From Microgenomates group bacterium GW2011_GWC1_46_15 (lineage in GTDB: Bacteria > Patescibacteriota > Microgenomatia > UBA1400 > UBA12028), in NCBI GenBank assembly GCA_001002285.1, contig LCLX01000003.1, positions 2,560-66,559 of the forward strand: 64,000 nt of DNA, in the 5' to 3' direction. The translations under genes and the position numbers were made by a program. This document shows, one piece after another, positions 54,909 through 61,103 of the stretch (its first letter is position 1; the number at the start of each line of letters is the position of its first letter). The notes beneath the pieces are model-generated. The model saw only the letters and a program-made list of their open reading frames with translations, did not search any database and had not been told where the DNA came from.

Positions 54909-55267
54909 TTGACGAATGTAAAGAGTTCCAATCAAACGCGTATATCAGACGTATGTCTGCGCGTTTGGTTTCGCTCCTTCACAATCGTGAAGAGAATGAA
55001 AGGTATACACGTAATGTATGTTCAATCGACCGATTAGTACAGCTAGGCTTAATCCTTCACAGGACGTACACCGGCTGCCTATCAACCTCGTAATCTCCGA
55101 GGGGTCTATTGGGATGTCTCATCTTAGGAACGGCTTCCCGCTTAGATGCTTTCAGCGGTTATCCAACAGGAATGTGGCTACCCTGCATTGCGCTTGACAG
55201 CGACAACAGGCACACCAGGGATTCCCTCACTTCGGTCCTCTCGTCATCTGATCTTCTGTTACCAGAA

Positions 55268-55535
55268 GGATAGACTATACCTTCACCTTTTCGCATTTCT
55301 GCGAGGAAGGTGCTTGCCGTGTTATGGATATATAATCCATCTTCATTCCACCTATTTTGGCGGAAATCCAGTCGTTACGGGGATGATTCCAAACTCGATA
55401 AGAGTTTTTTGTCATCTTCCCTCGGTATTGTCCTCTATAGCCATGGGACCATAGCTTAAAATATAGAGGATTTCACCGATTTGAGCAAGTGTATCACCCC
55501 TGCATTTCTGCAAGGCGTAGCAATTGTTTACTAGA
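55268..55535 (-). mobile_element. small ORF-less group I intron near the 23S 3' domain (about E. coli 2630-2640)
   Basis: R-like CCCCGTAACGACTGG and S element GGTGAAGGTATAGTCTATCC. Flanked by exon sequence ...GCGCTGGATGTTTGAAGGA upstream and ...GATGACGAGAGGACCGAAGTGAGG downstream. Boundaries are approximate. Confidence 0.4.
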
Positions 55536-55576
55536 AGCAAAATCCTTCAAACATCCAGCGCTGACAGTGGATAGAG

Positions 55577-55905
55577 GCCGACAATATGTTACAAAGGTAC
55601 GGTTTTACGTACACTCTTTATCACTAAAGAGATCCGACTATATCTTCATCCCCGAAAAGGGATATTTGACGTATAGTCTGTGAGGATTTCCTTCGCTTTC
55701 GCTTAGGATCTTTCCTGCTGATTGTCTTGCGTCAACAATTGACTGGTTTACTATTTTCACTTGCATGCAGATGCGAAACAAGTAAGTAAACATTAACGAG
55801 GGTTTCCAGCATTTAGTCAAATTTATAGTGGTTAAACCACTGTTACATTTTTGAGTCCTACCTATCTTCAAACGTCTATCTGTAACTTAGACAGCAAGGC
55901 CTTAT
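55577..55905 (-). mobile_element. small ORF-less group I intron inserted right after ...ACGTCGTGAGACAGT (I-CreI/I-CeuI-type homing-site region, about E. coli L2593-2610)
   Basis: R element CACAGACTATACGTCAAAT and S element GGATGAAGATATAGTCGGATC. Two short P9-like hairpins follow (CTCTTTAGTGATAAAGAG, GTACGTAAAACCGTAC). The exon resumes TGTCGGCCTCTATCC. Confidence 0.5.
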
Positions 55906-57240: not shown

Positions 57241-57861
57241 AGGTAGCAAACCGCGCCGTCGCTAGGGACGCTTAGGCGCGATGACTCTGTTATCCCCAGA
57301 GTAGCTTTTATCCGTTAAGCCCGGTACCTTCCACAAAGTACACGAGGATCACTATGACCTGCTTTCGCACCTGCTCGGCCTGTTTGCCTCACAGTCAAGC
57401 ATCCTTATGCCGTTGCACTTCCAGCCCGATTTCCATCCGGGCCAAGGATACCATTGCGCGCTTGCGGTACTCTTTAGCAAGCAACCTCCCCAGTTAAACT
57501 ACCCGCCAGACAGTGTTCCCTTCGCCGTTTGCAGGCGAATTGGGTGAGATATTTTATACGAAACGAGCGGTATTACACTGTTGTATGTACCTTGCGGCAC
57601 ACACTCCCGCCTATCCTAGACAATCCCGAATAAAACATCAGTGCCAAGCTATAGTAAAGCTTCATGGGGTCTTTTTGTCCTACTGCCAGTAGGCCGCATC
57701 TTCACAGCCATTTCAATTTCGCCGAGTAATGGTTCGAGACAGTTGGAGACTCGTTGTTCCTTTCATGCGCGTCGCCAATTAAGCGACAAGGTATTTCGCT
57801 GATTTGATTGACTTATCAATCTTTTTTGTTATAGCTCGTGTTGAGCTAGCGCGGTCATTTC

Positions 57862-58930
57862 TGCCGCTCTCTCATGGTCGCCCATGAGATCAGACTATCC
57901 CTTCACCAAAGAGGTTTGTTGTCATTTATGTACAACGGTAATTCTTTGGCGTTACGCGTATAGTCGTTGAGGATCCGATTCAATCGATCACGTTTGATAC
58001 GATTCTTTTGTAATTGAAAAGGAAAGTCTTCAGAAAATATCCGAAGCAATCGAACAACGTCCGATCGTTTTCCAGTTTCGTATACAAAAAGTTTCTCGTC
58101 TTTACGTTCATATACAAATCCGACTTTGAAGAAGAATCGAAATAATGTAATTATCCCATAATCCTTCATTCCTACTGTAAAGTAGGGTTGATATGTATTG
58201 TTACGTTTTTTCAAACCAACAGAGCCTTCTGCGTCAAATATTCCACATAAGAAGAATCCAAGTTCTTGTCTCGAATATCTTCTTTCATGAAAAGTCATTT
58301 GAGTGACAGAAAGTCCTTCTTTTTTTAATAATTTCAAATTTGCTCGAATATGTTCAATTTCTTCAACCTCACTCATATTTCTACGAGTGCTTTTTCCTTT
58401 TGCAGATAAAATATTCATTGCTTGTTGAAGCAATGAAATTTTAGCGTTTGCAATATCTCCTGCAATAATTGGGTATTGTGAAAAGAAAGAAAGCGCTAAA
58501 GCAACTTTTTTCTTTCCACGCATACTTAAGTTATATCCTCCATGAATGGGTGAAATAACTCCCCTACTATTACATAAACGTGCATTCACTTTTGCTAAAA
58601 GATAAAGGTCTTCATTAGAAACTGTGAGATCTGGACTATATGAAAATCCAGACCCATATGGTCTTGACTGTTTGATAACAGAACAAGACATTTCTCCGGC
58701 GCAAAATCCTGAAATATAAAAATTATCGACTTTACTCGTTTCCTGCTGGTTTTCTGCAGGTATGGCATTGTCAGTTGAAGAAATATTGGGCATCACTTTT
58801 ATAATACCCAAATATTTACCGAATATCAACTAGCCATCCTTCTAAAACACTAAAGATACCATCTTTGTGTTACAGATTTTCCAGCATACAGCGCAATTTT
58901 ACTATGGCAACGTTTTGATACCATAGAACA
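57862..58930 (-). mobile_element. group I intron with LAGLIDADG homing endonuclease ORF, inserted after the ...GTAACTATAAC helix-69 sequence (about E. coli L1917-1920)
   Basis: The 5' exon ends at ...GAAGCCCCGGTGAACGGCAGCAGTAACTATAAC (reverse complement of about 58931-58965). Group I S-element-like GGTGAAGGGATAGTC (reverse complement of 57891-57907) and R-like ACGACTATACGC are present. The 3' boundary is uncertain because the universal GGTCCTAAGGTAGC block is not evident. Confidence 0.55.
57903..58829 (-). CDS. intron-encoded LAGLIDADG homing endonuclease (double-motif)
   Basis: 308 aa. Motifs ...YISGFCAGEMSCS... and ...LCGIFDAEGSVGL.... Located entirely within the 23S insertion. Confidence 0.75.
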   Translation of the reverse strand: MIFGKYLGIIKVMPNISSTDNAIPAENQQETSKVDNFYISGFCAGEMSCSVIKQSRPYGSGFSYSPDLTVSNEDLYLLAKVNARLCNSRGVISPIHGGYNLSMRGKKKVALALSFFSQYPIIAGDIANAKISLLQQAMNILSAKGKSTRRNMSEVEEIEHIRANLKLLKKEGLSVTQMTFHERRYSRQELGFFLCGIFDAEGSVGLKKRNNTYQPYFTVGMKDYGIITLFRFFFKVGFVYERKDEKLFVYETGKRSDVVRLLRIFSEDFPFQLQKNRIKRDRLNRILNDYTRNAKELPLYINDNKPLW

Positions 58931-61103
58931 GTTATAGTTACTGCTGCCGTTCACCGGGGCTTCAATTGAAAGCAGTACCCTTGCGGGTACCACTCTCGCA
59001 GTTAACCTTCCGGCACTGGGCAGGTTTCAGCCCGTATACGTCCTCTTTCGAGTTTGCACGGACCTGTGTTTTTGTTAAACAGTCAGTCTCCAGTCTTTCG
59101 CTGCGCCTCTCCTTGCGGAGAGAAGGGCATATACCAAGGGTACGCCCAGCTGTTTTGCCGAATTCCTTAAACCATTGTCTCTCGTTCTCCTTAGCCTTCT
59201 CGGCCAGTTCACCTGTGTCGGTTATCGGTACGATTTAATAACACTCTGCTTGCGAAGCTTTTCTAGGAACCTGAAGTCCTGCGTCTTGCCCGTTCCTTGC
59301 GGAACAGACTCCACATCACAATTCGATTAAACATATCTGCGGGTTTGCCAACAGACATTATCTCGTTGCTTGTGCGGCTCTATCTTCGACAGAGCGCACG
59401 CAGTATCCAAATCCGTCCCTCCCCAAGTCATAACGATTGTTATCAAGGACCAGAATATCAACTGGTTATCCATCAGCTACGCCATTCGGCCTCGCCTAAG
59501 GGTCGCCTTACCCGCACACGACAAACGTGGGTGCGGAAACCTTGAACATTCGGAGATGAAGATTCTCACTTCATGTACGCTACTCATACCGGCATTCGCA
59601 CTTCCGGTCGCTCCAGCAGATCGATTTCTCGCCGCCTTCACAGCACCCGGAACGCTCCCCTACCACTCACATAATTTCTTACGAAAATATATAAATCTTT
59701 GTCTTCGGTATATTCCTTAAGCCTCGATACGTTTTCGACGCCCTGATCCTCGGCTAGTGAGCTGTTACGCTTTCTTTCAAGGATGGCTGCTTCTGAGCCG
59801 ACCTCCTAGGTGTTTGGGGACCAAGACTATCTTTCCCACTGAGGAATATTTAGAGACCTTAGACGAAAGTCTGGGATGTTTCCCTCTCGCCTGGCGAACT
59901 TAGCTCCGCCATACTGAGTCCCATGCACGAACTGACGGTATTCGGAGTTTGGTTAAATTTTTGATCTTGCGACCAAAAAATTCATCCAGTACTCTACCCC
60001 CATCAGCCTAATCATGAGCCTATACCTAAATATATTTCGGGGAGAACCAGCTATCTCCAGGTTCGATAGGCATATAACCTCTACCCACAATTCATCCGAC
60101 AGACTTGCAACTCTGAACGGTTCGGTCCTCCCGCACGTTTTACCGTACGTTCAACCTGATCATGGGTAGCTCACCTGGTTTCGGGTCTATAGTGTGTTCC
60201 TTGGCGCCCTATTCAGGCTCGCTTTCACTGCGCGTCCGCCGTTTCAACGGCTTACACTTGGAACAGACCATAACTCGCCGGTTCATTCTTCAATAGGCAC
60301 GACATCATCCTTGCGGACTCTGTCTGCTTGTTAGCAGATAGTTTCAGTTTCTATTTCACGGGGTCTTCGACCCTTCTTTTCACCTTTCCCTCACGGTACT
60401 CGTTCGCTATCGGTCAACACATGTATTTAGCCTTGGAGCGTGGTCGCCCCAGATTCTTCCCGGAGTTTGCCGTCTCCGAAAGTACTTAGGAAATCCCTAT
60501 GGTGCATCTGTTTTTCATATACACGACTGTCACGTTCTTTGGTCGCTCATTCCATAGCGTTCTATTCAACAGATACAATCCAATATTGGGCTCCTGCAAC
60601 CCCCATCTTACGATGGGTTTAGGCTGTTCCCTTTTCGCTCGTCGCTTACTCAGGGAATCTCTTTCGATGTCTTTTCCAGCGCGTACTTAGATATTTCAGT
60701 TCTGCGCGTACCCTTCCGTGACAAAAGCCACGGATGACCCAGAATAACCTGGGCCGGGTTTCCCCATTCGGACACCACCGGATCAAAGCTTCTTGACAGC
60801 TCCCCGGCGAGTTTCGCCGTCTAGTGCGTCCTTCTTCGGCATGTGTTGCCAAGGCATCCACTATCTGCATGAGTTCACATACATTACTGTATACTCTTGC
60901 GTTTTCAAAATTTTTGAAAATACAACCTACTGTTATTTTTTACAATAACAGCGTTGCAGCATTGATGAACGCATACAAAAGTATGCGCCCTTCCGCAGTG
61001 TTCTTCCCTTACGGGATGAAACGCGGTTTGCCGCAACATTCATTCTCTTCACTTGTTAAGGAGCGAATCCGTTGATCGGAGAAGAGTCTAAGCGTTTAAC
61101 GGC

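Follow-up and report, generated by a model that had tools for sequence, protein, structure and literature searches.

The window analysed here is a stretch of 64,000 nucleotides from the Microgenomates group bacterium GW2011_GWC1_46_15 (contig LCLX01000003.1), whose minus strand carries the genes for a tRNA-Ala(UGC), a 23S rRNA and a 5S rRNA, in that order. We read this locus, with a probability of roughly 90%, as the single tRNA-Ala/23S/5S transcription unit of a bacterium of the Candidate Phyla Radiation (CPR). In its 23S gene, group I introns are inserted at five places (E. coli positions 1931, 2500, 2511, 2604 and 2656), two of them with LAGLIDADG homing-endonuclease genes. Throughout, the letter L followed by four digits (e.g., L1931) designates an intron site in E. 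coli large-subunit (LSU) numbering, the insertion lying after that position, and L followed by three digits (e.g., L002, L132) is the label of a compared locus or contig. The introns are called I1 to I5 in the direction of the rRNA, omega denotes the last nucleotide of an intron, and ORF stands for open reading frame. The features of the unit are the following.

61352..61425, minus strand: tRNA-Ala(UGC), upstream of the 23S gene and co-directional with it (ARAGORN; Rfam tRNA, 62.8 bits)
58920..60883, minus strand: 23S exon 1, E. coli 1-1931, 5' end at 60883 from the Rfam LSU match, 3' end CUGUUCUAUGGU
57801..58919, minus strand: intron I1 at L1931, 1,119 nt, group I, with a LAGLIDADG_1 gene inside (Intron_gpI, 33.1 bits, E=1.8e-5)
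57903..58793, minus strand: endonuclease gene of I1 (LAGLIDADG_1, PF00961, 27.7 bits against a cut-off of 23.1; NCBI KKT97971.1)
57241..57800, minus strand: 23S exon 2, E. coli 1932-2500 (BLAST and MAFFT to E. coli)
56897..57240, minus strand: intron I2 at L2500, 344 nt, ORF-less, with P7.1 (IA-like) and omega-G (Intron_gpI, 31.8 bits, E=5.5e-6)
56886..56896, minus strand: 23S exon 3, a micro-exon of 11 nt, CGAUGUCGGCU, E. coli 2501-2511 (mapping)
56004..56885, minus strand: intron I3 at L2511, 882 nt, with P7.1/P7.2 (IA-like), a LAGLIDADG_2 gene and omega-G (Intron_gpI, 26.8 bits, E=1.7e-4)
56137..56760, minus strand: endonuclease gene of I3, 207 aa, I-SceI-like LAGLIDADG_2 (PF03161, 133.5 bits, cut-off 25, profile positions 3-168 of 168)
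55911..56003, minus strand: 23S exon 4, E. coli 2512-2604, 3' end GUGAGACAGU (BLAST, 87.5% to E. coli 2517-2604)
55582..55910, minus strand: intron I4 at L2604, 329 nt, ORF-less, with omega-G (Intron_gpI, 77.2 bits)
55530..55581, minus strand: 23S exon 5, E. coli 2605-2656, 3' end GCUUCUAGU, 5' half of helix 95 and of the sarcin-ricin loop (mapping and sister allele)
55245..55529, minus strand: intron I5 at L2656, 285 nt, ORF-less, with P7.1/P7.2 and omega-G (Intron_gpI, 49.6 bits, E=2e-10)
55010..55244, minus strand: 23S exon 6, E. coli 2657 to the 3' end (BLAST to E. coli 2657-2760)
54788..54904, minus strand: 5S rRNA, downstream of the 23S gene (Rfam RF00001, 69.1 bits)

A BLAST comparison with E. 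coli rrlH yields colinear blocks up to about 1931-1938 and then for 1932-2504, 2517-2604 and 2657-2760, with long stretches in between that find no match, and a MAFFT alignment arranges the gene into six colinear exon blocks with junctions at 1931, 2500, 2511, 2604 and 2656. The LSU_rRNA_bacteria model of Rfam matches 60883..57168 (minus strand, 1845.6 bits), its alignment ending at the second insert; since this alignment is glocal and forces the whole model into that interval, it is unusable for the exon structure, and BLAST and MAFFT were used instead. The initial annotation, made from the letters alone, had proposed to fix the boundaries by an Infernal search with group I intron and LSU models. 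The exon limits were set from the sequence together with the group I rule that the 5' exon ends in U and the intron in G, which places the interruptions at 58920/58919, 57241/57240, 56886/56885, 55911/55910 and 55530/55529. All five interruptions listed in the initial annotation are present, the first being 10 nt away from the position given and the other four at most 6 nt away. The tRNA-Ala(UGC) that it had placed upstream of the 23S gene is found by both ARAGORN and Rfam at 61425..61352 on the minus strand. Joined together, the six exons make up a predicted spliced 23S rRNA of 2,920 nt, with predicted ligated junctions (marked by a caret) GGU^AGCG (GGU^AGCGAAAU), CCU^CGAU, GCU^CAAC, AGU^UCGG and AGU^ACGA; the micro-exon shows no difference from E. 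coli, and neither does the sarcin-ricin loop AGUACGAGAGGACC. The 3' end of the gene (~55010) is approximate; ACAUACA at ~55021-55015 is complementary to the 5'-terminal UGUAUGU.

Each of the five inserts contains one match to the Rfam model Intron_gpI, in every case on the rRNA strand and with E-values from 1e-18 to 1e-3: I4 at 55898-55614 (77.2 bits), I5 at 55558-55252 (49.6 bits), I1 at 58119-57871 (33.1 bits), I2 at 57228-56906 (31.8 bits) and I3 at 56195-56013 (26.8 bits). These matches were obtained at a permissive threshold, the gathering score of RF00028 being 50 bits, and the lower scores of I1 and I3 are explained by their long ORF insertions. Exactly five copies of the S-element pattern GAAGRKATAGTC exist, one in each insert and every one on the minus strand (57904-57893, 56939-56928, 56045-56034, 55647-55636 and 55284-55273), where 100 shuffles lead to an expectation of 0, in agreement with the five S elements reported earlier on the rRNA strand. 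The helices of the ribozyme core were placed by hand and their pairing was verified by script. A P1 helix with the terminal exon U in a U.G pair is present in all five introns (from I1 to I5, CTATGGT/GCCATAG, ACCT/GGGT, GGCT/GGTC, AGACAGT/GCTGTCT and TAGT/GCTA), and its intronic partner is conserved in the introns of relatives at the corresponding sites. Helices P3, P4, P7, P8 and P9 are fully paired in the five introns save for one P9 mismatch in I2, and the guanosine-binding G-C pair of P7 (GACU/AGUC) is found in all of them. The IA-like elements P7.1 and/or P7.2 occur in I2, I3 and I5 and neither of them in I1 or I4, and four introns end in omega-G (I2, ...GTTTG; I3, ...ATATG; I4, ...TATTG; I5, ...AGATG), I1 ending in ...CAAATC.

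Intron by intron, the pairing is as follows. I1 combines P1 (7/7) with P10 (AGCG/CGTT), P3 6/6, P4 6/6, P7 (GACTAT/ATAGTC) 6/6, P8 7/7 and P9 7/7. In I2 the helices are P1 4/4, P2 7/7, P3 5/5, P4 6/6, P6a 9/9, P7 4/4, P7.1 6/6, P8 7/7 and P9 7/8, and in I3 they are P1 4/4, P2 6/6, P3 5/5, P4 6/6, P7 4/4, P7.1, P7.2 7/7, P8 6/6 and P9 4/4. I4 has a P1 of 7/7, with P3, P4, P7, P8, P9 and P9.1 all fully paired, and I5 comprises P1 4/4, P2 7/7, P3 5/5, P4 6/6, P5 8/8, P7 5/5, P7.1 7/7, P7.2 6/6, P8 6/6 and P9 6/6. The P3-P7 core pairing, whose absence would have spoken against the initial annotation, is present in all five inserts, and together with the six exon blocks it sustains the original proposal that this bacterial 23S gene contains group I introns, five in number. 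For the L2604 site, the core was further evaluated in an alignment of I4 with six ORF-less relatives (7 members; 24 pairs, 168 cells): 98.8% of the cells are paired, dropping to 28-41% in a control in which the 3' partners were slid, and 11 of the 24 pairs display compensatory changes, among them pairs of the pseudoknot helices P3 and P7 and of P9.

The initial annotation had assigned this fourth intron, inserted after GAGACAGT, to the homing position of I-CreI/I-CeuI. We take the I-CreI site to be L2593 and that of I-CeuI to be L1923, and I4 follows U2604, 11 nt downstream of L2593 and in no relation to the I-CeuI site, so that it belongs to L2604. The segment corresponding to E. coli 2580-2604 is continuous in the window, with no insertion at L2593, and a separate L2593 insertion exists in 5 of 59 relatives.

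From this anatomy, each intron would fold into a group I ribozyme core, exogenous guanosine would attack the 5' splice site after the U of the P1 U.G pair in all five introns, and the freed 5' exon would then attack the 3' splice site, in whose alignment P10 would be assisted, in four introns, by the terminal omega-G. The expected product would be the 2,920-nt 23S rRNA, with peptidyl-transferase and sarcin-ricin sequences identical to those of E. coli.

The same sequence has been recovered in more than ten independent assemblies from different samples, including Rifle groundwater. The 207-aa intron protein is identical on 24 contigs of the collection, and across the 23S region ten compared loci match the window at 99.8-100% identity, scaffold gaps in L004 aside; the 58 apparent gaps and 206-aa ORF of that locus were considered as an intron or endonuclease variant and discarded, as they correspond to scaffold gaps (NN). 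In a sister population (L132-L136), gene order is conserved and the 23S exons are ~99.5% identical. I5 is precisely absent from L132-L136 and I1 from L132-L135, the sister alleles reading CTGTTCTATGGT^AGCGAAATACC at L1931 and GTAGT^ACGAGAGG at L2656, and this precise absence fixes both junctions. The comparison with intron-less relatives that had been recommended for finding the insertion sites hence delimits I1 and I5 to the nucleotide. It also provides a natural intron-less L1931 sequence, ...AACTGTTCTATGGTAGCGAAATACC... (L132), as a candidate substrate for the I1 endonuclease.

All five sites are empty in many CPR relatives, and in other CPR genomes homologous introns are inserted there. 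A scan for the pattern between helices 69 and 71 (H69-H71), with one genome per species, returned 119 loci, mostly labelled CPR or Patescibacteria, of which 92 read directly GGT^AGCG and 27 have an insert right after GGT; 25 of these 27 inserts are delimited at both ends, and most pair with the exon via GCCATAG or a near variant. For the 2500/2511 region, 16 of 37 loci lack any insert, most of the others have it at L2500, and L2511 and L2504 are occupied in two loci each. At L2604, an intron with the P1 partner GCTGTC is present in 11 of 53 relatives, and no intron is found in 42 of 54 CPR loci. The 2615-2656 interval contains an insert in 4 of 53 relatives (L048, L071, L105 and L108), L083 being one more. 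The search pattern CTGTTCTA(T/C/A)GGT was also encountered in metagenome-assembled genomes titled uncultured Gammaproteobacteria, Pseudomonadales or Bdellovibrionales (L013, L016, L021, L027, L034 and others), some with L1931 introns like those of the CPR loci; these titles may be taxonomic mislabels.

I5 lies inside the sarcin-ricin loop, between U2656 and A2657, and homologues of it with the size expected for an endonuclease gene occur in L071 (752 nt) and L105. The stem of helix 95 that flanks this intron (55538-55534 and 55233-55229) differs from L132-L136 by three compensatory base pairs, being GCUUC/GAAGU in the intron-containing window and GCGCG/CGCGU in the intron-less sister, and the window stem is identical to that of L071, which bears a homologous L2656 intron. 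This stem would represent the co-conversion tract expected from homing. Judging from the sister population without I1 and I5 and from this signature in helix 95, the introns appear to be mobile on an evolutionary timescale.

The two LAGLIDADG ORFs announced in the initial annotation both score above their Pfam cut-offs (LAGLIDADG_2, 133.5 bits; LAGLIDADG_1, 27.7 bits), and NCBI names both products homing endonuclease, in a record whose organism is GW2011_GWB1_45_17. The I1 enzyme has 296 aa from its ATG, or 308 aa from an upstream TTG at 58829, and contains two LAGLIDADG motifs, YISGFCAGEMS and LCGIFDAEGSV; its ~54 homologues are of ~270-330 aa, mostly 270-300 aa, and the match to PDB 4lq0 is weak. 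Its ORF spans P5'/P4'/P6 and stops inside P8/J8-7. The I3 enzyme (NCBI KKT97972.1), with the motifs LGDG and MDDG, resembles the I-SceI family, aligning near full length with PDB 6x1j (1.4e-18) and with I-SceI itself (1r7m, 4.3e-13). I-SceI is encoded in a yeast mitochondrial LSU intron at L2449, so the target site of the I3 enzyme, at L2511, must differ. The start and first codons of the I3 ORF overlap P5'/P4'/P6, and its stop codon TAA lies within the R element CCCCGTAACGACTG. The sharing of letters between core and coding sequence can be followed in the peptides: the I1 codons ..ENQQE.. (58760-58741) coincide with the P4' core AACCAGCAGGAA and the I3 codons ..NTVGS.. (56760-56734) with the P5'/P4'/P6 core AAUACCGUGGGAAGUC, both peptide motifs recurring in relatives, and NQQE is also found at the start of the published I-ShaI. 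In L131, an in-frame 18-nt deletion (4777-4818 of that contig, corresponding to window ~58040-58023) shortens the I1 endonuclease to 290 from 296 aa, which may be an early sign of endonuclease decay. By comparison of their sequences, I2, I4 and I5 are probably ORF-less derivatives of families that carry endonuclease genes in other CPR bacteria.

The position and the 3' end of I1 deserve separate consideration. The initial annotation had placed the first intron in helix 69, directly after CTATAAC, and had described the expected universal motif as unrecognisable at this junction. An insertion after CTATAAC was rejected, given that the exon continues with TGTTCTATGGT, which pairs with the intron sequence GCCATAG, and that intron-less alleles read GGT^AGCG. 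Exon 1 is thus 10 nt longer, and the intron follows U1931, as the sister population and intron-less relatives read CTGTTCTATGGT^AGCGAA. The motif itself is present across I1 as CTGTTCTATGGT^...^AGCGAAAT, in the CPR variant CTGTTCTATGGT^AGC, TATGGT being a common CPR form of TAAGGT.

When its limits are set by the intron-less sister allele, the last nucleotide of I1 (57801) is a C and not omega-G. Since I1 ends in C, its second splicing step cannot be taken for granted, and the lack of omega-G leads us to class I1 among group I introns whose 3' end is non-canonical. Every independent assembly shows this same C, and among the homologues of I1 omega-C recurs in L137 and L140-142, whose endonucleases are 88% and 51% identical, respectively; omega-G is found in L138 and L139, whose endonucleases are of the I1 family. 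A sequencing error was ruled out on both counts, the identity of independent assemblies and the existence of homologues with omega-C, and a scan of metagenome contigs disclosed no variants of the I1 3' junction. Two other 3' sites that would supply an omega-G were discarded as well: splicing at G1933 would remove A1932-G1933 from the rRNA, and if the G preceding the ATTGA/TCAAT hairpin were used, 20 nt of the insert would stay in it. Against both stand P10 (AGCG/CGTT) and the sister allele, which set the junction before A1932, and the relatives, in which the equivalent hairpin lies inside the intron. In the I1 lineage, omega-C therefore appears to be tolerated and recurrent, with the look of neither a one-off lesion nor an error.

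An alternative to regular excision of all five introns is that I1 is not removed by canonical two-step splicing, being instead retained, released without ligation (which would fragment the 23S rRNA) or dependent on a maturase or another mechanism, while the other four introns splice normally. We regard this as possible though unlikely. It draws on the terminal C defined by the sister allele and conserved in every independent assembly, on the recurrence of omega-C in the diverged homologues L137 and L140-142, and on omega-A in 6 of 26 other CPR L1931 introns. Precedents exist by title alone: Raghavan et al. in 2007 reportedly described a self-splicing Coxiella 23S element without canonical omega-G, and Everett in 1999 a Simkania L1931 intron that is said to stay unspliced in 23S rRNA. 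The first of these titles, however, also tells against a defect, as the Coxiella intron is reportedly self-splicing; the non-G terminal nucleotide of I1 is a C, in which it departs from that element as known by its title. Moreover, P1, P10, P3-P9, the guanosine-binding pair and the endonuclease gene of I1 are intact, which argues for a working ribozyme. Positions 1931/1932 are located between H69 and H71, at the interface of the two ribosomal subunits; a 1.1-kb insert left in place, or a nick, should be costly there.

On a wider scale, a lineage of CPR L1931 introns that includes I1 might have given up omega-G, which is otherwise universal, with C in the window, L137 and L140-142 and A in six others, three or four of them with a flipped P7 pair. 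This proposal, which we put forward tentatively and hold to be rather improbable, would have one of two outcomes. Either these ribozymes choose the 3' splice site and ligate without omega-G, perhaps through an altered nucleoside specificity or with the help of a maturase, or the ribosomes function although the insert between H69 and H71 is retained or the exons around it are left un-ligated. Among the omega-A introns, those of L033 and L082 have the guanosine-binding P7 pair flipped on both strands (CACUAU/AUAGUG vs. GACUAU/AUAGUC), that of L019 shows the flip in the S element, its R element not having been found, that of L063 shows it in the R element only, and those of L096 and L119 keep the canonical pair; no omega-G intron shows the P7 flip. 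The L2604 intron of L108 likewise ends in A.

I2 and I3 are separated by a very short exon, as had been pointed out, although its length is 11 nt and not 10: a C at both edges permits a 10-nt reading in the DNA, and the 5'-U/omega-G rule leads to 11 nt. The exon corresponds to nucleotides of the peptidyl-transferase centre. In the one-genome-per-species scan, the window is the only locus with both L2500 and L2511 occupied, and the sister population also possesses the pair. The window is not alone in having very short exons, since L137-L142 combine an I1-type intron with an L1917 intron, leaving a 14-nt micro-exon, AACTGTTCTATGGT, between them.

The initial annotation had considered the 344-nt insert to be a decayed tandem copy of its neighbour, and the possibility that I2 arose from I3 by local duplication and no longer functions as an intron merits discussion, although it seems improbable to us. 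The insert (57240..56897) and the repeat of ~100 nt are real: 57153-57054 and 56832-56732 are 88% identical over 102 columns, the R element is common as well, this similarity is shared by I2 and I3 only, and it takes in the variable P5 extension (82% between I2 and I3, at most 68% to any relative). Both copies also begin in the same reading frame, MKHGNTVGS, which had been taken for a duplication of the first nine endonuclease codons. Most of those codons, however, consist of the ribozyme core AAUACCGUGGGAAGUC, which is also found in ORF-less relatives; more broadly, the segment GGCUAAUAACGGUGAAC ... AAUACCGUGGGAAGUC of the shared block represents the P3/P4/P6 core, conserved throughout the family, and in relatives it also codes for the endonuclease N-terminus (..NTVGS..). 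Nor does I2 look decayed. It retains all core helices and omega-G, and it has only 5 substitutions relative to the sister copy, the sole change in a helix (P8) preserving the pair as a G.U wobble. A perfect 9-bp hairpin takes the place of the ORF body. Its first 85 nt (P1-P2, ACATCGGGG; ..AACATCGGGG..) and its 3' part (GAAGGTATAGTCA..) are of the L2500-intron type known from ~25 CPR relatives, and the ends of I3 resemble the L2511 introns of L027 and L116. As the L2500 introns of relatives contain homologous LAGLIDADG_2 genes, I2 is best read as an L2500 intron that has lost its ORF.

Hence, rather than as products of a simple tandem duplication, I2 and I3 are interpreted from these comparisons as site-specific L2500 and L2511 introns belonging to one IA-like family. 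The P5 extension shared by these two introns only points to exchange within the lineage, and their P3-P6 domain has most likely been homogenised there by recombination or gene conversion between neighbours.

Several observations weigh against the interpretation of the locus as a 23S gene with five spliced introns. Splicing is inferred from anatomy, not measured; at the gathering score of 50 bits only I4 qualifies, I5 reaching 49.6 bits and I1, I2 and I3 being at 27-33 bits; P1 is of just 4 bp in I5 and I3; the terminal C casts doubt on a canonical second splicing step in I1; and the co-conversion reading has a single donor-like lineage, L071. The most radical option, that the inserts are expansion segments or RNase III-type intervening sequences, known at helix 25 and helix 45, or that this 23S copy is dead or misassembled, is nevertheless very hard to sustain: each of the five inserts shows a group I core, in the orientation of the rRNA, the inserts sit at 1931 and 2500-2656 and not at helices 25 or 45, they interrupt universally conserved, critical sequence (the peptidyl-transferase centre, the A2602 region and the sarcin-ricin loop), the exons are colinear with E. 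coli and ~99.5% identical to the sister population, with the micro-exon and sarcin-ricin loop unchanged from E. coli, and the same sequence comes from more than ten independent assemblies of different samples. What can be said for it is that non-intron insertions are numerous in CPR 23S genes, according to the CPR survey (PMC11270868), and that three of the five Rfam scores are under the gathering score.

The reading as a 23S gene with five group I introns fits a class that is already catalogued, group I introns with LAGLIDADG genes in CPR 23S genes, and offers little that is new as a kind; as CPR 23S introns at these hot spots have been published, novelty is low. Insertions of this sort in CPR bacteria were reportedly first described by Brown et al. 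in 2015, in the study said to be the source of the GW2011 genomes. In the CPR survey (Tsurumaki et al. 2024, PMC11270868), one of a body of work that spans hundreds of genomes, insertions affect 82% of CPR 23S genes, with up to 16 per gene, 45% of the insertions are Rfam group I, the hot spots include 1917, 1931, 1952, 2593, 2604 and 2657, and LAGLIDADG_1/_2 ORFs are common. The window shares with that survey the presence of multiple group I inserts clustered in domains IV-V, the LAGLIDADG_1/_2 ORFs, the coexistence of ORF-bearing and ORF-less versions per site and the hot spots 1931, 2604 and 2657, which coincide with I1, I4 and I5; nothing categorical separates it from the class (PMC11270868). 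The combination of L2500 and L2511 with an 11-nt exon, the I2/I3 mosaic and the omega-C at L1931 were not found in the text of the survey considered here, which stresses single-domain enzymes, in contrast to the double-motif, 296-aa I1 endonuclease (PMC11270868). Insertions at 2500 and at 2511 are also present in other CPR loci.

Outside the CPR, L1931 introns are known from Simkania negevensis, Thermotoga spp., Synechococcus sp. C9/S. lividus C1 and green-algal organelles (Haugen et al. 2007, PMC1995217). They resemble I1 in the site after U1931, in the LAGLIDADG type and in an ORF that reaches from a peripheral loop into the core of the ribozyme, where part of the sequence is at once coding and helix-forming, and ORFs running into the core are also described for cyanobacterial L1917, L1931 and L2593 introns (PMC1995217). 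They differ in their size, 654-700 nt with a single-motif enzyme of 143-167 aa, from I1 with its 1,119 nt, double-motif enzyme of 296 aa and terminal C (PMC1995217). A comparable arrangement of a very short exon between group I introns is found in the Coxiella 23S gene, where two introns, one with a LAGLIDADG gene, flank a 34-nt exon in domain IV (PMC10136302, PMC4990558). That gene differs in its sites, in its exon length and in having two introns, as opposed to five introns and an 11-nt exon in the peptidyl-transferase centre (PMC10136302), and its introns belong to different subgroups, IB2 and IA3, whereas I2 and I3 share a homogenised core (PMC10136302, PMC4990558). In the orf142 gene of phage Twort, closely similar group I introns 2 and 3 flank a 23-nt exon, a likeness that makes exon skipping or cooperative folding possible, in a host gene that differs by being protein-coding (PMC10136302). 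As P1/P10 and the peripheral helices of I2 and I3 differ, inclusion of the exon would be favoured, in line with the experiments of that paper (PMC10136302).

No match to small-subunit (SSU) rRNA was found by Rfam within the 64-kb window, so that the lack of a linked 16S gene stated in the initial annotation holds for the window itself, but not for the parent contig L002, which is identical to the window from 62905 downwards and on which the 16S 3' end lies upstream, past the window edge. There, the 16S 3' end and a tRNA-Ile(GAU) are situated ~4.4 kb upstream of the tRNA-Ala on the same strand, the 16S gene lying ~5 kb upstream, and the ~4.3 kb between the two tRNAs, which split the rRNA operon, are occupied by four protein genes, namely a large serine recombinase and three other ORFs. 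In more precise terms, L002:98-985, ~2-2.7 kb past the window end at 64000, comprises a group II intron D1-D4 piece (98-184, 48.1 bits) preceding the 16S 3' end, the 16S 3' end itself (SSU model 1393-1491 at 295-396), interrupted after ...AAGTCGT by a group I intron (400-654, 46.6 bits), and the tRNA-Ile(GAU) at 913-985. A perfect inverted repeat of 103 nt (window 62806-62905 and 63942-64000, corresponding to L002 2627-2729/3853-3955) flanks an ORF at 62840-63679; next to it, outside the window, lies the 507-aa large serine recombinase (L002 958-2481). The repeat is joined differently in the window and in the parent contig, giving this ORF two C-termini (274/279 aa), and the segment is either invertible DNA or an assembly artefact. 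Between the tRNA-Ala and the 23S 5' region, the spacer 61351-61122 cannot be aligned to L132-L135, its flanks being 94-99% identical, and a 76-aa ORF is located there (61334-61104, minus strand).

As to the significance of the locus, standard rRNA callers shorten the 23S gene, with the Rfam LSU match ending at 57168, so that exact exon and intron coordinates are of value for annotation. For intron specialists, the interest resides in an 11-nt exon of the peptidyl-transferase centre placed between two introns with an apparently homogenised core, in an intron inside the sarcin-ricin loop, and in what looks like a recurrent loss of omega-G at L1931. Further interest lies in two natural populations, one with the L1931 and L2656 introns and one lacking them, which together with the helix-95 tract would constitute direct evidence of recent homing and which provide natural candidate substrates for the endonucleases.

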